Source of the DNA: Caldilineales bacterium
Lineage (GTDB): Bacteria; Chloroflexota; Anaerolineae; J102
DNA: 64,000 bases
NCBI GenBank assembly: GCA_019695115.1
Contig: JAIBAP010000013.1
Coordinates: 36,179-100,178 of the forward strand
Direction of reading: 5' to 3'
Every line of letters begins with the position of its first letter. Position 1 is the stretch's first letter. Below are positions 3,248 to 20,321 of this stretch, piece by piece. Below the pieces are notes generated by a model. The model made no database searches and had not been told where the DNA came from. It worked only from the letters and a program-made list of their open reading frames with translations. The position numbers and the translations under genes are program-made.

Positions 3248-4471
3248 CTACCCGCACCCCCCGCCGCCGGTGGGGCCTTTCTGCTCGATCTTCACCTTGG
3301 GCGTATACTCCATCTCTTTGCCATGCTCACGCAGGCTTGAGGTGGCATGGTTGCCCCCCAGGGCGGCATCGATCACAAAGCGCAACTCCTCATCGCCGCC
3401 CGGCATCGCCTCGAAAGGCGTCTCGCTGCACAAGGCGATGAAGTTGTTCAGCCCGCCCTCCAGGATGTAGAGATTGGGGACCTCCGCCGCCGCCAGCAGC
3501 TTCCATCCCGCCGTCGCCAGCGTCTCGTCATTGCTCATCAGCACCACCACGGTGCCGTCCGGAGCCGCTTTCAGCTCAGTCGCCAGCGCCGGCAGGTCGG
3601 TCAGCGATGCACGCTCGGCGCCTTTGATGTGAAAGAGATTGTAATCGGCTTCCGGGCGCACATCGAGCATGACCAGATTGACCCGGGTGTTGAAGAAGAC
3701 ATCGCGCAATTCCGCCGGATGAATCTGCACCTGGCGGTTGTCCAGCAGCGGCTGCTTTTCGGCGGCCATGCGTTGCCACAGTTGCGCGGACGTGGGTTGG
3801 CCGATCAGCAGCACCGCCAATCCCCCCGCCACCAGCAGCGCCCAACCCGCCATCGTCTTCCTCCCCACCCCTGCCACGGCCAGCCCATCCTTCCGCCGCA
3901 TCGATTTCTCGAGCTGCTCGGCCCCCCACAGCGCCAGCACGCCGACGACCGTGACCAAAAAGACAGTGACGCCGACCGGCAGCCCCAGCAGATCGGGGAG
4001 GGTGAAGCGGCCCATGTAGGTCGATTCTAGAAAATGATCGTAGTATTTCGAGGTCTCGCCAAACAGGACGACGCCGCCCAGAATGCCGATCAGGAAGAAC
4101 CCGGCATCCTTTTTCAGCGTGGCCAGGGCGGCGATGGAGGTGCCGGGGCAGAAGCCGCCGATGATGAAGCCCACGCCCACCAGCAGCCCGCCCAGCGCGC
4201 CCGGCAGCAGATACGTCGGCGGCACCCAGATGCGGTCGAAATCCAGCCAGCCCAGGCCGGCAAAGCCATACACCAGCACCATGGCCGCCAACACCGCCGT
4301 GAACATGACCTTGAACACGGTCATATCGCGCAGATAGAACTGGGCGGTGAGCTTAGTCGAGCGGCCAAAGCCCACCGTTTCCAGGGCGACGCCAAAGCCC
4401 ATGCCGATCAGCACGTAGAGAAGATAGGTTGCGGTTTTGCCAATCGTGGCATCCAGGGGAAAGGGGCCCAT
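3248..4471 (-). CDS. YeeE/YedE (Sulf_transp) half-transporter fused to an extra TM helix, a rhodanese-like domain and a C-terminal GGGGCG tail
   Basis: It carries the conserved GGFCPGTS motif of YeeE/YedE in a multi-TM N-terminal part. The C-terminal ~160 aa have the rhodanese layout (LVMLDVRPEADYNLFHIKGA ... VVVLMSNDE ... ILEGGLNNF). The protein ends KGPTGGGGCG-stop. The start is placed at the ATG preceded by GGAGGAG; the track ORF starts 12 nt earlier at TTG. Confidence 0.8.
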   Translation of the reverse strand: MGPFPLDATIGKTATYLLYVLIGMGFGVALETVGFGRSTKLTAQFYLRDMTVFKVMFTAVLAAMVLVYGFAGLGWLDFDRIWVPPTYLLPGALGGLLVGVGFIIGGFCPGTSIAALATLKKDAGFFLIGILGGVVLFGETSKYYDHFLESTYMGRFTLPDLLGLPVGVTVFLVTVVGVLALWGAEQLEKSMRRKDGLAVAGVGRKTMAGWALLVAGGLAVLLIGQPTSAQLWQRMAAEKQPLLDNRQVQIHPAELRDVFFNTRVNLVMLDVRPEADYNLFHIKGAERASLTDLPALATELKAAPDGTVVVLMSNDETLATAGWKLLAAAEVPNLYILEGGLNNFIALCSETPFEAMPGGDEELRFVIDAALGGNHATSSLREHGKEMEYTPKVKIEQKGPTGGGGCG

Positions 4472-4507
4472 GTGCTCCTCCAAATCGAATCGAACGGGGT
4501 GAGGGTG

Positions 4508-5098
4508 TCAGTGCGGCGCCTCTGCCGGCTGCCAGAGCTTGCGCAGGACGTAGGCCAGGGCATAGCCGCCGAAGAAAAAGGCCATCAGGAAGGCCCAGCT
4601 CCCCACCGAGAGCGTGGCCCCGCCCGACAGCCCCTGCCCCGATGTGCAGCCCCTGGCCATGCGGGCGCCAAAACCAGCGATCACGCCGCCGAGCAGGGCG
4701 AAGAGCCAGCGCTGACGGTCGCTGATCTGCGGGCCGCGCACCGTCTCCCACTTGATCCGGCGGCCGCGCCAGCCCGACGCCAGGCCGCCCAGAAAGATGC
4801 CCACCGTCAGCAGCACGATCCAGTTGTCGAGCGCGTTCTTATCGCCGCCGGCATATTGCACGAGATAGGAGACGCGGTCGGCATACTGCGGCGCCGCCAG
4901 ATCGATCAGCCAGACGACCATGCGATTGAGGCCGCCGGACGCGCCCAGGCCGTTGCCGGTGAGATAGAAGGCCAGAAAAAGCACCACGCCCAGGAACAGC
5001 CCGCCGAGATAGGGGTTGGTGAAAGGTCGGGGCTGGGCCGCGGGCCTGGCCTTGGCCCGGCTCTTGGAGTCCAGTTTTGCTTGTGTGGCAGTCGTCAT
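4508..5098 (-). CDS. YeeE/YedE (Sulf_transp) family half-transporter
   Basis: A 196-aa polytopic membrane protein with GARMARGCTSGQGLSGG, the conserved Cys-containing motif of YeeE/YedE. It lies 36 nt upstream of the second half-transporter gene. Confidence 0.8.
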   Translation of the reverse strand: MTTATQAKLDSKSRAKARPAAQPRPFTNPYLGGLFLGVVLFLAFYLTGNGLGASGGLNRMVVWLIDLAAPQYADRVSYLVQYAGGDKNALDNWIVLLTVGIFLGGLASGWRGRRIKWETVRGPQISDRQRWLFALLGGVIAGFGARMARGCTSGQGLSGGATLSVGSWAFLMAFFFGGYALAYVLRKLWQPAEAPH

Positions 5099-5123: not shown

Positions 5124-7820
5124 TCAAATCGTCGCCTCGTGCACTTCCACCTGATCCCAGCCGGTGATCATCCCCCGCAGGTCGGCGGTGATGGTGGCGC
5201 CGGTCGTGGTCAGATACATGTGCAAAATCAGGAACGAGACGAAGAACCAGGCGACGAGCGTGTGAATCGGAGCCAGATAGGGCAGATGCGCGGCCAGGTC
5301 GGGCCACAGGCTCACCCCGAACATGAGCAGGCCGGTGAGGATCTGCGCCGGCAGCAGCAGGTTGAGGATGGCGAAGTAGGTGAGCTGTTGCAGGGGGTTG
5401 AGCCTGCGCTTGCGCGTCTTGGCGAAGGGGTGCGGGTCGCCGCGGAAGATGCCGCGCAGATAGTAATCGATCTGCATCAGGCCCTGGCTGAAGAAGCCAT
5501 GCGGCTGCGGCAGATATTGCTTGATCTCGCCGCTGGCGAAGTGGTAGAACAACGAGAAGGCGGCATTGAGGACCAGCAGGATGGCGAGGATGTTGTGCAC
5601 CGGCACCACCAGACCGAAATCGACAGCGCCGAACTGGTCGGGGCGATGGATGACGATGCCGGTGAGGATCAGCAGGATGATGACGATGGCCTGCGTCCAA
5701 TGCCACAGCCGCTCGTAGAAGCCATACATGTACACTTCTTTCAGTTCCGGCGCCGCCGGCGGATGGCTGGCAGAGCTGTACAGGCGGTAGCCGCCGTGGA
5801 CGATGATGCCCAGCAACACCGCCAGCACCGCCCCCCAGCCCACGAAATCGACCCAGGGCAGGCGGTTGTGGCCGGGGAGATAGAGATTTTCGGCCGAGAT
5901 GTTGAGGGCATAGAGCAAGTCCCCCTCCTCGCCGGCGCCAAAATCGCCGCTGAGCGAGACGCCGGAATGACCGGCGAAGGCCGGCGTGGCCCCACCCGGC
6001 GTGTAGGGCGCCAGCGATAGGCCGGCGGCGAGGCGAGACTCGTCGCTGTGGCAGGCGTCGCAGTCGCGCGTGGCCCATTCCCCCGCCACCACATTGTGGC
6101 TGATGTTGTAGGGCGTCACCTCGCCCCGGATCTCCAGGTTCTGCAAGCCCAGAGCCTCCAGGCGGCCCCGGATCAAGGCGATCTTGAAATCGCTGTCCAG
6201 ACGCAGCTCGGTCTCGTCCAACTGCCCATCCTTGTTGGCATCGAAGGCGGCGAGGACATCGGCCTGATAGCCCTCGCCCTGCAGATAGGCCGCTTGCAAA
6301 TCCTCTTGCCGCACCGGCCGTTCCGGATCGCCCTGCACCCAATACCAGGTCGTGATCAAGTTGAAGGGCGCCAGCTTGACGCCGCCGCTCGCCTGCGCCT
6401 GTGGCAGCAGGATGGGGTCATAGCCGACCATCAGGTCGCGCGGGTTGCCGCATTCGCCCTCCACCCCGCGGTGGGTGGTGGGCGCGGTTCCTTCCAGGTT
6501 CAGCACCGTCCAATCCACCGCTGCCAGCGCCGCCGTGTACATCTTGGGAATATGGCACGATTCGCAGGCCAGGGCGTTCATATGCGTCTCGGTGTAGGGC
6601 AGCCAGGCGTGCGTGACCTTGACCTCATGACAATCGGCGCACTGCCGCATCGTGTCAGTCATTTCCGGCGCCAGGGCGTGCTGGGCGGTGTCGCCTTTGG
6701 CAAAATCGTGGCTGGGCCGGTAGAGATAGTCGCCCAGGGGCTGCCGCCGGGGGTCGTAGATCAGATATTCGGGGCGGGTGACCTCCGATTCTTTCCGATA
6801 GGCGGGGTTATTGAGCGAGAAATGGCAGTCGGTGCACTTCAGATTGCGCTCGGCGTGGATGTCCCAAGGCAGCGTCAGCCCCTCTTTCCCGGCCATGTTC
6901 AGGCCCGAATCGGAGAGGCGCTGACCCGAATAGATCTGACCGGTGCGCAGCGAACTCCAGTCGCTGGCCTTGATGTCGGCGCAGATCAGCGGGTCGTTTT
7001 CGAGATGCACGGCGCCATGACACTGCCCGCAGTTGCTCGAAGTCGCGGCCTGCACAGGCATGAACGCCGGCTGCAAGGTCCCATCCTTCTGAAAAGCCTC
7101 GGCCTGCCACACCCAGCCATCGCCCACTTTCTCCACGATCCCGGTCCCCGCCAAAATGGCTGTATTCGCCCAGCCGAATTGCCCGGCCAGCAGCGCCTGG
7201 GTGCGGGCCTCATTATCCGGCGCGGCGATGTGGCAGAGGAAGCAGTTCATTTCCACCACGCCCGAGGCCTGCCAATCCCAGGCGCTGTCGGCGCCGGTGG
7301 CGGGGTCGTGGTGGGTGGTTTCGGGGTCGCCGACGGCCGGGGCCAGCGTGGTCAGGCTGGCTCCATCCTGGCTGACGGCCGCCGGCCCGCCGCCCACGTG
7401 CCGCAGGCCATAGGTCTGGATCCAATCGGGCAGGCCCAGATCGAACAGGGCATCGCCGGCAGGGGTGAGATAGCGGTAGAGCACCGGATCCCACTTGCCG
7501 TACAGCCCCCGGCTCAGGTCCCAGGCCCGGCCATCCGACACCCGCCCGGCGGCGACGGCATGATCCTGGCCGACGGCGGCGTGATAGCTGTGGGCAGTGA
7601 TGTAGGCGGTGTCGTGGCAGCCGCCGCAGCTCTGCTCGGTGGAAACGGGTTTCCCGGAGATAAGGACGTTCACGCCCGCGGCATCGACCAGGGGGAAGGT
7701 GGGGTGCAGGGGCGAAGGGTCAGCCTGGACGCTGCCGGCGAGGGCCAGCAGCAGAGCCAGGGCCAGGCCCAAGCCGGCAAGCGCTGGCCAGCGTCGCGTC
7801 AGACGGTTGCAAGCGATCAT
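5124..7820 (-). CDS. heptaheme cytochrome c fused to a C-terminal membrane cytochrome b domain (PhsC/FdnI/HydC-like, PF01292-type)
   Basis: Signal peptide MIACNRLTRRWPALAGLGLALALLLALAGSVQA. Seven CXXCH motifs (CGGCH, CFLCH, CGQCH, CTDCH, CADCH, CESCH, CDACH). The C-terminal ~200 aa have 4-5 TM helices and conserved His (LWHWTQAIVIILLILTGIVIH, PVHNIL, FYHF, LILHMYL). The start is chosen at the ATG that forms an ATGA overlap with the upstream stop. Confidence 0.85.
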   Translation of the reverse strand: MIACNRLTRRWPALAGLGLALALLLALAGSVQADPSPLHPTFPLVDAAGVNVLISGKPVSTEQSCGGCHDTAYITAHSYHAAVGQDHAVAAGRVSDGRAWDLSRGLYGKWDPVLYRYLTPAGDALFDLGLPDWIQTYGLRHVGGGPAAVSQDGASLTTLAPAVGDPETTHHDPATGADSAWDWQASGVVEMNCFLCHIAAPDNEARTQALLAGQFGWANTAILAGTGIVEKVGDGWVWQAEAFQKDGTLQPAFMPVQAATSSNCGQCHGAVHLENDPLICADIKASDWSSLRTGQIYSGQRLSDSGLNMAGKEGLTLPWDIHAERNLKCTDCHFSLNNPAYRKESEVTRPEYLIYDPRRQPLGDYLYRPSHDFAKGDTAQHALAPEMTDTMRQCADCHEVKVTHAWLPYTETHMNALACESCHIPKMYTAALAAVDWTVLNLEGTAPTTHRGVEGECGNPRDLMVGYDPILLPQAQASGGVKLAPFNLITTWYWVQGDPERPVRQEDLQAAYLQGEGYQADVLAAFDANKDGQLDETELRLDSDFKIALIRGRLEALGLQNLEIRGEVTPYNISHNVVAGEWATRDCDACHSDESRLAAGLSLAPYTPGGATPAFAGHSGVSLSGDFGAGEEGDLLYALNISAENLYLPGHNRLPWVDFVGWGAVLAVLLGIIVHGGYRLYSSASHPPAAPELKEVYMYGFYERLWHWTQAIVIILLILTGIVIHRPDQFGAVDFGLVVPVHNILAILLVLNAAFSLFYHFASGEIKQYLPQPHGFFSQGLMQIDYYLRGIFRGDPHPFAKTRKRRLNPLQQLTYFAILNLLLPAQILTGLLMFGVSLWPDLAAHLPYLAPIHTLVAWFFVSFLILHMYLTTTGATITADLRGMITGWDQVEVHEATI

Positions 7821-9301
7821 TTCGCACCCCCTTCGCCGCCGGCGGCGCTTTGCGTAACCAGCAGGCGCTCGGCCCGGCCGCCGTAGAACATCGGATCGCC
7901 CTCGTAGCCCAACGCCCGCCAATCGAGGATGCCTTCGCCGTTCTCGACATGGCAGGTATCGCATTGCAGGGCCTGCTCTTTGGGGGCGACCATGTGCGTG
8001 ATCGGCCAATACATCTCGGTCGGGGCGAAGTCATAGTGGCCGCTGTAGGCGATGCCGTTGGCCTCTGACCCCAGCCGGGCGGCCTCGTCCCAATCGAAAT
8101 CGGTCCAATAGCCGCCTTCGCCATAGGTTTTGGGCACGAGCAGATAGTTGTACTCGCTGTCGTAAATCTGCTGGGCGTGATGGATTTTGAACGGCCAGAT
8201 GCGGGCGTTGGGGTCGTCGATGTCGCCGGTGGGGCGGTTGATGGCCGTCACCGCCTGCGGGTCGATGACATCGCCGAGAATGTAGCGCTCGGTGCCGCCA
8301 TTGTACCAGGCGTAATCGGGCACGACATTGTCTTCATAGACAAACGCACCCTTGATCTTCAAATACTCGTGCGGATCCTGCGGTAGATCCAGCCCTGCCT
8401 GCGACCAGTCCCACTCCACCTTCGTCGCCAGTTTGCGGGCGAATTCGGGGATGTGGCAGGTCTGGCAGGCCAGGGTGGAGGCATGGATGTTGATGCGGGA
8501 GTCGTCATGCGGCGTGGGCGAATGGCAGTCGGTGCAGGCGATCTGGCGAGCAGCGTCCATGCTGACCGAGATCGAGCGCCCGCCGATCTGATGGTCTGCC
8601 GTGCGGTGGCAGTCGGTGCAGACGAAATCGTGCTTGCCCATGTGTACGTCGAGATCATCGTTGGGGAAGGTAAGCGAGGTGTCCAGGTCGCCATGCTTGA
8701 CGGCATCGCCGCCGCCGCCGTTGAAATGGCAGCTGCCGCAGTTGTTGCGGGTGGGGTTGCCCACGCTCTGCGCCACCGCCGCCAGATCGACGCTCTCGGC
8801 AGGCTGGCCGCCATTCTTCTTGACATAGGTTCCGGTGGTGTCGTGACAAACCAGGCAATCGACATGGGTCATGTCGGTGAAATCGAAGGTCGCATCTTCC
8901 CAGCCGTAGCCGGCATGGCAGGCGGTGCAGGGCGGCCAGTTGGAGGTGATGCCGATGCAGAAATTGTTGAGCACGTATTTCTTGCCCCCCATCACCGGCT
9001 CGTCATGGCCGGGCAGATCATAGGGGCCGTGCTCCCAAGTGAAGTGCGACGATTGCAACATCTGCGCCCCCGCCTGGGGATGGCACTCCAGACAGGCCTG
9101 GGTAACCTCCTGCCCGCTGGCGAAGGGGCCTTGCAGCACGGTCATGGTGTGTTCGGTGTGAACAGGGTGTTTGGGGACATGCGCCCAGGGGTCATCGGCG
9201 GTGGCGGATGGTCTGGGCAGAAACAGGAACAACGCCAAAACAATCAGGGCGGCCGTGATCGCTGCCCCGATGATCCAGGAGCGTCTTTGGTATTTTCTCA
9301 T
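7817..9301 (-). CDS. membrane-anchored octaheme cytochrome c, probably octaheme tetrathionate reductase (OTR) family
   Basis: N-terminal TM anchor and eight CXXCH motifs (CLECH, CTACH, CLVCH, CGSCH, CTDCH x2, CQTCH, CDTCH). The motifs NNFCIG, CTACHAGYGW, CHFNGGGGDAVKHGD and CQTCHIPEF match my recollection of the OTR family. No HMM was run. Confidence 0.65.
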   Translation of the reverse strand: MRKYQRRSWIIGAAITAALIVLALFLFLPRPSATADDPWAHVPKHPVHTEHTMTVLQGPFASGQEVTQACLECHPQAGAQMLQSSHFTWEHGPYDLPGHDEPVMGGKKYVLNNFCIGITSNWPPCTACHAGYGWEDATFDFTDMTHVDCLVCHDTTGTYVKKNGGQPAESVDLAAVAQSVGNPTRNNCGSCHFNGGGGDAVKHGDLDTSLTFPNDDLDVHMGKHDFVCTDCHRTADHQIGGRSISVSMDAARQIACTDCHSPTPHDDSRINIHASTLACQTCHIPEFARKLATKVEWDWSQAGLDLPQDPHEYLKIKGAFVYEDNVVPDYAWYNGGTERYILGDVIDPQAVTAINRPTGDIDDPNARIWPFKIHHAQQIYDSEYNYLLVPKTYGEGGYWTDFDWDEAARLGSEANGIAYSGHYDFAPTEMYWPITHMVAPKEQALQCDTCHVENGEGILDWRALGYEGDPMFYGGRAERLLVTQSAAGGEGGAK

Positions 9302-9374: not shown

Positions 9375-10121
9375 TCAGAGATGGCTCATTTCGGCAATGA
9401 CGCGGAAGCGGTTGACGAAATCGGCGCGCTCGCGGCCAATATCCTCGAACGTGTGCGCGACCTTCTCCAACCAGTTGCCGATCTGTCCGCGCATACGCTC
9501 GTCCAAAACCGGCAGACGCCGGGCCGCCTGGCTGAGCGAGTCTTCGTCGATGCCATGTTTGTGCGCCAGCGCCCGGATGCGTGCGGCTTCCTCGGCGGCA
9601 TCAGGTGGCTGGGCATAGAATTGCCCGGCAATCAGCATGGCGGCCAGATCGCGCCCCGCCAGCTCGATGCGGGCGCGGGCATATTGCAGCCCGGCATGGC
9701 AACTGGCAAAGGTGGGGCGCTGTTCGGATTGTCGGGCGAGCCTGGCCCATGATGCCTGGCAGTCTCTCCGCCCCGTCTCGCTGGCCAGGATCAGGTTGCA
9801 GAACGTGCAGGCATTGCTGATCGCGGTCATGGGCGCGCCGTCCGGGTCGGTGGTGACGGCGCCCACCTGGGCGACTTCGGCAAAGACATCCTGCACGCGC
9901 TGCACACAGGGCAGCGGCAATACCTGGGCGTGAGACCCAGGGGCCACCGCAGGCGTCGATTTGTCCCCCGTCAGTAACGCCTCGACCGCTCCGCGCTCGA
10001 AACGCCACTGCTGGCCGATCTTGGCGCCCGCGAGCCGGCCATCCTGCAACATGCGGTAGATGGTGGTACGGTCGACCTGGAGGAATTCCTGCACCTGCCT
10101 GGCATTGAGATAGTCGGTCAT
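9375..10121 (-). CDS. transcriptional regulator: excisionase/MerR-type HTH plus PocR-like sensory domain
   Basis: N-terminus LNARQVQEFLQVDRTTIYRMLQDGRLAGAKIGQQWRF (excisionase-family HTH). The remainder has a PocR-like Cys pattern (CTFCNLILASETGRRDCQASW ... FASCHAGL). Confidence 0.7.
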   Translation of the reverse strand: MTDYLNARQVQEFLQVDRTTIYRMLQDGRLAGAKIGQQWRFERGAVEALLTGDKSTPAVAPGSHAQVLPLPCVQRVQDVFAEVAQVGAVTTDPDGAPMTAISNACTFCNLILASETGRRDCQASWARLARQSEQRPTFASCHAGLQYARARIELAGRDLAAMLIAGQFYAQPPDAAEEAARIRALAHKHGIDEDSLSQAARRLPVLDERMRGQIGNWLEKVAHTFEDIGRERADFVNRFRVIAEMSHL

Positions 10122-10322: not shown

Positions 10323-11051
10323 TCAACTCCGGCCGTTCTGCACCGCCACGATCTCCGCCATGATCGCCAGCGCCGTCTCTTCGGGCCGCCGGCCGCCCAA
10401 CGCCAGGCCGATGGGGTTGTGGATGCGCCTCAAGGCTTCATCGCTCACCCCCAGCTCACGCAGCCGCTCGGCCCGCCTGGCCATGGTCTGGCGCGAACCG
10501 AGGGCGCCGATGTAGCGGGCGGGGCTGCGCACGGCCAGGGCCAGGGCCGGCAGGTCGATCTTGTCGTCGTGGCTGAGGACGGCGACATAGCAGCCCTCGT
10601 CCAGATTCAGGCCGGGGAGCAGGTCATCCGGCCAGCCCGGCAAGAGGTGGTCGGCGTGGCCGAAGCGGTCGGCGGTAGCAAAGGCCGGGCGAGGGTCGAT
10701 GACCGTCGTGCGGAAGCCGAGCACGCGGGCGAAGCTGACCAAGGCGATGGCGACATGGGCGGCGCCGATGATGATGAGTCGCGACGGCGGCGGGAAGACC
10801 TCGATGAAGAGGTCGTACTCCACCCCGCCCGCCACGAAACGCTCGCGGGTCGTTTGCTGATCACCCAGAAGCGCCTGCATCCGGCCGGCAACCTGCCGAT
10901 CGAGGTCGGGCTGACCCAGGCTGCCGGCGGTGCGGCCATCGGGCCAGGCCAGCATTCTGGCGCCCGGATTGGGGCCGGCCAGGACGGTGGCCGCAGCCAC
11001 CAGCCGGCCGGCTTCCAGGTCTTGCTTGAGTTGAGCGAAGATACTCGTCAT
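10323..11051 (-). CDS. XdhC/CoxI family accessory protein
   Basis: 242 aa with an N-terminal XdhC-type region and a Rossmann-like part LIIIGAAHVAIALVSFARVLGFRTTVIDPRPAF. Confidence 0.7.
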   Translation of the reverse strand: MTSIFAQLKQDLEAGRLVAAATVLAGPNPGARMLAWPDGRTAGSLGQPDLDRQVAGRMQALLGDQQTTRERFVAGGVEYDLFIEVFPPPSRLIIIGAAHVAIALVSFARVLGFRTTVIDPRPAFATADRFGHADHLLPGWPDDLLPGLNLDEGCYVAVLSHDDKIDLPALALAVRSPARYIGALGSRQTMARRAERLRELGVSDEALRRIHNPIGLALGGRRPEETALAIMAEIVAVQNGRS

Positions 11052-13677: not shown

Positions 13678-14865
<1,188 letters not shown>

Positions 14866-17019: not shown

Positions 17020-20102
<3,083 letters not shown>

Positions 20103-20106
<4 letters not shown>

Positions 20107-20321
20107 CGCCGCCATCCGCCTGGCTGGAGCGTCTGCACCTGCAAGCGCCCGCCGCCATCTTCATCGACGCTTTCCGGCCGTTGGGCTGGTTTGCGAGCGA
20201 GATGCTGGCGGCGGCGGCGCCCCTGCTGCCGGTGGAACGCGACCGGGTGGAACGATTGGCCCGGCGCCTGGGCGATGAAGGGAAGCCGGAGCAACCCGCC
20301 CGGCCAGGAGAGGAGCCATGA
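20103..20321 (+). CDS. hypothetical small protein (72 aa), translationally coupled to secA
   Basis: Its ATG overlaps the secA stop (ATGA) and its stop overlaps the next ATG (ATGA). I recognise no motif. Confidence 0.35.

Follow-up and report, generated by a model that had tools for sequence, protein, structure and literature searches.

Among the described systems that come closest to the one analysed here is SoxY, whose carrier arm ends in the motif GGCGG-COOH. The cysteine of that arm has been described, and tetrathionate converts it to an S-thiosulfonate (PMC5336275). Import from SoxYZ through SoxT, a YeeE-like protein, has been proposed (PMC11582611). As for the YeeE relatives themselves, split YedE1E2 takes up zero-valent sulfur, with cysteine persulfides as proposed intermediates (PMC10812762), and the cysteine of the split N-terminal half (PmpB) has been equated with Cys91 of YeeE (PMC11582611). 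In YeeE's crystal structure, the N-terminus lies outside and the C-terminus inside, helices H1-H6 and H8-H13 are of opposite topology, Cys22 and Cys91 are on the cytoplasmic side, and Cys293 sits in a periplasmic indentation (PMC7449682). Here, we examine a gene from a Caldilineales bacterium (Chloroflexota), located in a stretch of 64,000 nucleotides (hereafter the window; assembly GCA_019695115.1, contig JAIBAP010000013.1, positions 36,179 to 100,178 of the forward strand). According to the list of open reading frames (ORFs) and to Pfam, this gene (3248..4483, on the minus strand, as are all features placed below unless stated otherwise) encodes a membrane domain resembling the N-terminal half of YeeE/YedE, two extra membrane helices, an inactive rhodanese domain and a GGCG tail.

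We propose that the product of this gene is a SoxY-like swinging-arm carrier, built on a rhodanese scaffold and tethered to one half of a YeeE channel. We would give this reading a probability of roughly 0.6. The architecture, the outside topology, the conservation of the arm, the exchange of selenocysteine (Sec) for cysteine at its tip, and an invariant gene cassette around an octahaem tetrathionate reductase (OTR) were all computed in this analysis. While the parts, and the principle of a carrier arm, are already known, novelty lies in the scaffold, in the fusion to a channel, in the obligate OTR cassette, and in the selenoprotein form. An initial annotation, made from the sequence of the window, had remarked that such an arrangement had not been seen described, and in literature searches (OTR with YeeE or rhodanese; SoxY with YeeE) neither the fusion nor the tail, the cassette or the Sec form was found to be described.

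The ORF is 411 aa long. Its start is probably the ATG at 4471, judging from homologues of 407 aa that begin MAPFPL; the homologue search returned 2120 proteins. Pfam places Sulf_transp (YeeE/YedE, PF04143) at aa 45-225 and Rhodanese (PF00581) at aa 269-349, the latter with E 9.6e-11 and 42.5 bits (cutoff 22.2). The span that had first drawn attention, 3248-3736, corresponds to aa 250-411. In Foldseek, the full model finds rhodanese domains as all of its top matches, with no direct superposition on YeeE obtained, and a phmmer search of the membrane half against the PDB gave no match. The rhodanese-fold domain itself (aa 250-352; 3428..3736), delimited by Pfam, AlphaFold and Foldseek, is modelled with a pLDDT mostly of 84-97. 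The protein thus belongs to the split YeeE/YedE family and, in the inactive class, to the rhodanese homology superfamily; to go by its sequence, it is one half of a two-gene YeeE sulfur channel of the PmpAB/YedE1E2 type. No NCBIfam model covers it, and in the databases its family bears only the labels 'YeeE/YedE family protein' or 'rhodanese-related sulfurtransferase'.

The evidence that carries the proposal begins at the C-terminus. The protein ends in PKVKIEQKGPTGGGGCG followed by a stop, and the DNA, which reads GGC CCC ACC GGC GGC GGG GGG TGC GGG TAG (G P T G G G G C G stop), confirms the Gly-rich Cys-Gly ending. In the AlphaFold model, the pLDDT is 88 for the EYTPKVKIEQ block and drops over the final eleven residues, to 48 and then 31, a pattern that fits a folded domain followed by a flexible arm of about ten residues. 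The arm, KGPTGGGGCG (aa 402-411; 3251..3280; codon of Cys410 at 3254-3256), was delimited from these values and from the homologue alignment.

Whether the tail is conserved in orthologues had been raised at the outset, and the answer is clear. Among the 120 best homologues (97% to 48% identity), 115 end in GCG and one in GCGG, two stop at GGG (the Sec type, see below), and two are fragments. The tail is retained down to 43-48% identity, in unfused relatives, and in orthologues that, by record title, represent at least seven phyla. In an alignment of 70 homologues, which also serves the analyses below, the last four residues are near-invariant and the six before them vary, so that the conservation goes beyond chance. 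Only two cysteines are conserved in this alignment, Cys112 (70/70) and Cys410 (68/70), and the latter is the only one outside the membrane. An exhaustive search with aa 233-411 yielded 413 cluster representatives, which fall into two architectures. The fused form is about 400-445 aa long. The stand-alone form, of about 200-215 aa, has one N-terminal hydrophobic helix, a GQPT motif, a Cys-less rhodanese domain and a tail of the type KVK...GGCG or GGCGG; its N-terminus is equivalent to the sixth membrane helix plus GQPT of the fused form. The ending GGCGG, exactly as in SoxY, is found in P0082, in L037 and in many stand-alone forms.

The reactive residue expected of a rhodanese is gone. The pseudo-active-site loop M316-S-N-D-E320 (3524..3538) is acidic and near-invariant among the homologues, and it has a methionine in place of the catalytic cysteine. 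This had been claimed from an alignment by hand, and it is borne out in three ways. A profile-profile alignment of the domain family puts Met316 (family consensus Val or Met) opposite the catalytic Cys65 of E. coli GlpE; a phmmer alignment puts it opposite the cysteine of the CAGRTR loop in 1YT8; and there is no Cys column in the loop among the 70 aligned homologues. Pairwise BLASTP of the domain against GlpE gave nothing usable, and the question was decided by profile alignment. The protein therefore lacks the cysteine at the start of the active-site loop that marks a catalytically active rhodanese. Since the conserved loop is acidic, the rhodanese body more probably provides a scaffold or a surface for docking than a site that binds anions.

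An indication that chemistry takes place at the tip of the arm comes from selenocysteine. Exchange of Cys and Sec at one position is a strong sign of redox or chalcogen chemistry. In four independent relatives (genome loci L012, L015 and L089, and metagenome contig L091) the codon for the tail cysteine is an in-frame UGA; these loci read GGG-TGA-GGC-stop, hence GGG-U-G-stop, and the apparent protein ends at GGG. The UGA-containing tails lie at about 10237-10280 in L012, in L015, in L089, and at 1710-1745 in L091. Each is followed, 15-17 nt after the UGA, by a GC-rich hairpin of 6-7 bp with a three-base loop (GGC, GTT, GGT, GGT), and in the alignment of the four sequences three of the six stem pairs are compensatory. 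A comparable hairpin occurs at this position in 4/4 Sec-type loci, as against 4/79 Cys-type loci. No Rfam model matches these SECIS-like hairpins, which were therefore judged by covariation and by the Cys-type control. A separate terminator-like hairpin with a T run lies further downstream in each Sec-type locus. The only tRNA found near the Sec-type gene of L012 is a tRNA-Glu, not tRNA-Sec. Proteins P0107, P0115 and P0124, which end in GGG, and perhaps P0205, which ends in GG, seem to reflect the same miscalling of a stop. Among the prokaryotic selenoproteins listed in a 2026 review are YeeE in a Sec form (GUxSG) and rhodanese-like proteins in five Sec forms; none has a C-terminal GGUG (PMC13188914). 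The variants are thus a candidate new selenoprotein form, ending GGUG-COOH. The replacement of Cys by Sec in relatives implies that the tail residue is chemically active, and on this ground we rejected the possibility that the tail is a sorting or lipidation signal; we also know of no C-terminal sorting motif that ends in GGCG. A membrane methyltransferase of the PEMT/ICMT family, encoded immediately downstream of the tail gene in L001/L002 (11300-11785) and also in L014 and L055, was considered as an enzyme that modifies the tail and rejected: its presence is limited to four loci that are closely related to one another, and it probably has nothing to do with the tail.

For the arm to act as proposed, the side of the membrane on which it lies is critical. 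The membrane domain (aa 1-232; 3788..4483) has six hydrophobic helices by hydropathy and in the AlphaFold model, at aa 21-39, 59-77, 92-110, 127-145, 165-183 and 210-228. The protein matches the N-terminal part of the Pfam Sulf_transp model, and its partner, encoded next to it, aligns to YeeE residues 233-329; the partner is thus the N-in/C-in half and our protein the N-out half. By comparison with YeeE, the first four helices would form the core, the fifth would be the equivalent of H7, and the sixth would return the chain to the outside. Loop charges tell the same story. The mean number of Lys plus Arg (K+R) in the 70 homologues is 0.6 for the N-terminus and, for the successive loops from L1-2 to L5-6, 2.4, 0.6, 1.2, 1.3 and 4.4, or 8.0 in total for the predicted inside loops versus 2.4 for the outside loops; by the positive-inside rule this alternation implies N-out/C-out. 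The loop before the last membrane helix, EKSMRRKDGLAVAGVGRK, was described in the initial annotation as strongly positive, and this is real: its equivalent is K/R-rich family-wide (the 4.4 just given). The helix that follows it (3800..3856), defined by hydropathy and loop charges, leads into the conserved GQPT motif. In the stand-alone relatives, the N-terminal flank of the single helix is positively charged in 38/40 cases, like that of a signal anchor. Additionally, the neighbouring c-type cytochromes bear signal peptides or anchors, and cytochromes of this type mature on the outer face of the membrane. Three independent and agreeing lines (YeeE homology, loop charges and the stand-alone relatives) thus support the extracytoplasmic location first suggested for the rhodanese domain and tail, which we regard as a prediction.

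These data also bear on the possibility that the rhodanese domain and tail lie inside the cell, taking the role of YeeD or TusA and receiving thiosulfate or sulfane sulfur from the channel. There is precedent for such a partner: YeeE needs the cytoplasmic, Cys-bearing YeeD, and natural YeeE-YeeD fusions exist (PDB 8J4C; PMC11073785). However, six helices that start from N-out give C-out, the K+R totals for inside and outside loops favour the same orientation, and the N-termini of nearly all stand-alone forms look like signal anchors. We consider a cytoplasmic arm very improbable, and the proposal of an extracytoplasmic carrier is retained in what follows.

The gene stands at the end of a cassette. 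Immediately upstream, in 82/82 loci, is the partner YeeE/YedE half (4508..5098; 196 aa), which resembles the C-terminal half, with N-in/C-in topology, as assigned by Pfam PF04143 and by the alignment to residues 233-329 in 6LEO/8J4C. Its single conserved cysteine, Cys151 (codon 4646-4648), is present in 83/85 sequences and occupies the position of YeeE Cys293, in the outer vestibule. The conserved Cys112 of our protein lies in the loop GGFCPGTS (codon 4148..4150) and corresponds to the N-half cysteine equated with YeeE Cys91. Next comes a gene for a multihaem cytochrome c with seven CXXCH motifs fused to a PhsC-like dihaem cytochrome b (5124..8009; Pfam Ni_hydr_CYTB and haem motifs); the cytochrome b part matches the NCBIfam thiosulfate reductase cytochrome b subunit (E 3e-37), below the curated cutoff. 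In the listed ORF of 961 aa, the first ~63 residues are Arg-rich and overlap the end of the preceding gene (window 7817-8009). The true start is probably M64 at 7820 (MIACNRL..., with a signal peptide ending VQA-DP), which would create an ATGA overlap with the OTR stop codon and suggests translational coupling. That preceding gene (7817..9301) encodes an OTR homologue with an N-terminal signal anchor and eight CXXCH motifs. It matches 1SP3 of Shewanella oneidensis with E 9e-160 and about 58% identity, scores 574.5 bits against TIGR04315 (cutoff 375), and keeps chain positions Lys56 and Cys64 of 1SP3, its GGKK aligning with RGKK at Lys56, the haem ligand.

The arrangement of these genes is strikingly constant. 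The relatives were scanned with one genome per GTDB species (at least 592 relatives), and synteny was compared in the best 80 loci plus earlier ones, with about 19 kb per genome. Wherever a locus includes 5.2 kb or more of upstream DNA (64/64), OTR is followed by the multihaem cytochrome, then by cytochrome b, one YeeE half and the YeeE half-rhodanese-tail gene, all colinear on one strand, and this order is kept where cytochrome b, the multihaem protein or the rhodanese-tail protein is a separate gene (L006, L008). The adjacency to c-type cytochromes noted at first therefore turns out to be stronger than guessed, an invariant OTR cassette. The hosts are mostly Chloroflexota (Anaerolineae, Caldilineaceae, Ardenticatenaceae, Promineifilaceae); others, by record title, are metagenome-assembled genomes (MAGs) of Lysobacterales, Chromatiaceae, Acidobacteriota, Actinomycetota, Gemmatimonadota, Planctomycetaceae and Neomarinimicrobiota. 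The cassette is also present in the cultured Vibrio hangzhouensis CGMCC 1.7062 (L086).

How these components act together can be outlined as follows. The two added membrane helices would place the catalytically dead rhodanese domain on the outer face, and the arm cysteine (Sec in some species) would be a covalent carrier in the manner of the SoxY arm. Its thiolate or selenolate may attack an S-S compound outside the cell, most likely tetrathionate or a polysulfane, to give Cys-S-S-SO3- or Cys-S-Sn-. The neighbouring OTR would then reduce the tethered adduct, with electrons that pass from (mena)quinol through cytochrome b and the multihaem cytochrome. Finally, the released thiosulfate or sulfane sulfur would be handed to the channel beneath and reach the cytoplasm along its two pore cysteines, Cys151 of the partner in the outer vestibule and Cys112, at the position of YeeE Cys91, towards the inside; with Cys410 of the arm outside, the complex has three conserved cysteines. 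For the rhodanese body we suggest the part of a scaffold and docking module, comparable to that of SoxZ for SoxY, rather than that of a sulfurtransferase. Four points in this outline are inferred: that an adduct forms, what the substrate is, that the reaction runs in the reductive direction, and that the product is handed to the channel. Tetrathionate as the specific substrate of the arm is a tentative choice, which we hold to be somewhat less probable than its negation.

The cassette could also run in the oxidative direction, with OTR coupling thiosulfate to the arm cysteine, as SoxXA does with SoxY, and electrons flowing to the quinone pool. A haem enzyme combined with a carrier that has a Cys arm is also the anatomy of SoxXA and SoxY, and members of this cytochrome b family can run both ways (hydrogenase HyaC versus PhsC). 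On the other hand, the tetrathionate/thiosulfate couple is more positive than menaquinone, which by our reasoning would make quinone reduction uphill, and most of the hosts are anaerobes of the Anaerolineae type or facultative heterotrophs. An oxidative cassette appears to us quite unlikely, and reduction of the arm-bound adduct is the direction that we favour.

It is also possible that the arm carries no substrate at all but acts as a redox gate or sensor, opening or closing the channel through a reversible mixed disulfide with Cys151 of the partner or through oxidation by tetrathionate. Exactly three conserved cysteines are found in the pair, one of them in the outer vestibule, where an arm of ten residues could plausibly reach it, and the rhodanese loop is unsuited to anion binding. 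Yet the invariant coupling to a three-component electron-transfer chain would be excessive for a gate, and the stand-alone versions have the arm on a polypeptide of its own, as carrier proteins do. Furthermore, genuine SoxY carriers take its place beside otr in other bacteria: in lucinid symbionts, a divergent but genuine soxY-soxZ pair directly adjoins otr (PMC11237559). We therefore regard a gate as improbable. The soxYZ pair suggests instead that OTR may generally pair with a Cys-arm carrier, for which the rhodanese-GGCG protein would be a non-homologous substitute.

The regulators bring in a further alternative. Directly upstream of the cassette in the window is a gene for an HTH_17-PocR regulator (9375..10121; Pfam), and L009 (with two copies), L012, L015 and L069 likewise have PocR-type genes close to it. 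In most other loci, OTR is preceded by an ArsR-type regulator with one conserved cysteine (LHAxxCxAL), matches to which were found in 52/92 sequences searched. This regulator would suit a system for metalloids, in which the arm Cys/Sec binds species derived from selenite or tellurite, or As(III), OTR reduces them, a YedE-like channel moves selenium, and the ArsR sensor exerts control. In the same vein, the model against which the partner half scores best is the YedE/FdhT selenium model, although at 44 bits, far below the cutoff of 350; YedE-like proteins have been linked to selenium transport (PMC11582611); and among Sec-containing proteins associated with transporters, ties to metalloid resistance are frequent (PMC13188914). 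Against this, the known substrates of the Shewanella enzyme, to which the cassette OTR is so similar, Lys56 and Cys64 included, are tetrathionate, nitrite and hydroxylamine; repressors of the ArsR family, such as SoxR and sHdrR, respond to sulfane sulfur as well; and the cassette has no conserved ars, ter or sel gene. A role in metalloid handling is unlikely on balance, though worth keeping in mind.

Several points weigh against the sulfur-carrier proposal itself. The rhodanese-tail family is known from sequences and models alone. OTR also reduces nitrite and hydroxylamine in vitro, and its physiological substrate is unsettled (cited in PMC11237559). The direction of electron flow depends only on thermodynamic reasoning, from menaquinol to the tetrathionate/thiosulfate couple. 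A cytoplasmic acceptor (TusA, DsrE or an active rhodanese) is not a conserved part of the cassette, and the single-cysteine ArsR-type regulator fits metalloid sensing as well as sulfane sensing. The acidic pseudo-active loop (NDE) is ill suited to sulfur anions, and the role of the rhodanese body is a guess. In one Caldilinea aerophila MAG (L058), whose YeeE pair includes the rhodanese-GGCG tail, the 3.2 kb upstream of this pair are free of cytochrome genes; it is the only apparent exception to the OTR cassette, another C. aerophila MAG (L022) having too little upstream DNA to tell.

A few other observations concern the surroundings of the cassette. Downstream of it in L009 (13852-16708) are genes for a pyridine-nucleotide disulfide oxidoreductase and for DsrC-family and DsrE-like proteins; these are possible cytoplasmic sulfur acceptors and are not conserved in other loci. 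In the window, an XdhC-like maturation factor (10323-11051) and an ArsA/Get3-type ATPase (13678-14865) are encoded a few kb upstream, with no evidence of membership in the cassette. Further away, at 17020-20115, two ORFs of ~1030 aa overlap on opposite strands, of which the minus-strand ORF has no Pfam match.

What would follow if the proposal is correct? The cassette would be a new and widespread respiratory and import module, the gene fusion would be physical evidence for a hand-off from carrier to YeeE, and the Sec forms would found a new selenoprotein family ending GGUG-COOH. More broadly, OTR-family cytochromes may normally act on sulfur tethered to the Cys/Sec arm of a protein, with an unrecognized rhodanese-scaffold carrier in hundreds of species, fused or adjacent to a split YeeE channel that imports the product by a three-cysteine relay; for this combined picture the odds seem to us a little short of even. 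OTRs are common metagenomic markers whose role in vivo has been uncertain since 2004, and the cassette offers a testable physiological context for them. The fusion with a YeeE half lends genomic support to the idea that carrier-bound sulfur passes to YeeE-like channels. Vibrio hangzhouensis CGMCC 1.7062 is a tractable cultured host in which to address these issues. The cassette is also present in abundant Anaerolineae of wastewater and sediment, and it could alter how the cycling of sulfur intermediates by these organisms is read from their genomes.

Finally, it is instructive to set the protein beside the systems it most resembles. Like SoxY, it is predicted to be extracytoplasmic, has a flexible Gly-rich C-terminal arm with one invariant cysteine, and is encoded beside a c-type haem enzyme. 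The resemblance to SoxY put forward in the initial annotation thus stands for the arm. It does not extend to the fold, which is that of a rhodanese (alpha/beta) and not the SoxY beta-sandwich, and Pfam SoxY has no match in the protein at E <= 0.01; the relationship is one of analogy, not homology, and a SoxY-type swinging arm appears to have arisen independently on a rhodanese scaffold. Unlike SoxY, moreover, the protein has no SoxZ partner, is tethered to the membrane and fused to half of a channel, and bears, behind a conserved PKVK motif, an arm about ten residues long.

With PmpAB and YedE1E2 it shares two adjacent genes, four-helix halves, and one pore cysteine in each half (YeeE Cys91 and Cys293); YedE1E2 imports zero-valent sulfur, and YeeE (TsuA) needs a Cys-bearing partner protein. 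None of these channels has the two extra helices and the extracytoplasmic domain, nor the obligate link to OTR and cytochromes. No TusA/YeeD domain (the CPxP Cys partner) is found in the protein or in the conserved cassette; in contrast to YeeE-YeeD (TsuAB), the Cys-bearing module would here be outside rather than a cytoplasmic, TusA-like YeeD. The cassette OTR is a clear orthologue of the Shewanella oneidensis enzyme (1SP3), but studies of the latter have dealt with a soluble enzyme acting on its own on free substrates, whereas here OTR is always encoded with a carrier arm, a channel and a quinol-linked chain.

Other carriers offer partial parallels. Sud is the periplasmic polysulfide-sulfur transferase of Wolinella succinogenes, a rhodanese-fold protein that carries sulfur covalently on one cysteine and delivers it to a respiratory reductase. 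Sud, however, uses the cysteine of the active-site loop, which our protein has lost, the presumed reactive residue being on the C-terminal arm; and Sud is soluble and serves the molybdoenzyme Psr, not an octahaem cytochrome. MoaD and ThiS are ubiquitin-like and carry a thiocarboxylate at Gly-Gly-COOH, unlike the rhodanese fold and Cys-Gly end seen here. The C-terminal redox arms of DsrC (..PTGCV) and mammalian thioredoxin reductase (..GCUG-COOH) are flexible tails on which a penultimate Cys or Sec shuttles between sites, as may be the case for the arm described here, whose Sec forms would end GGUG-COOH. DsrC and thioredoxin reductase, though, are cytoplasmic, have other folds and employ two-chalcogen chemistry, whereas the present arm would work outside the cell with a single Cys or Sec.

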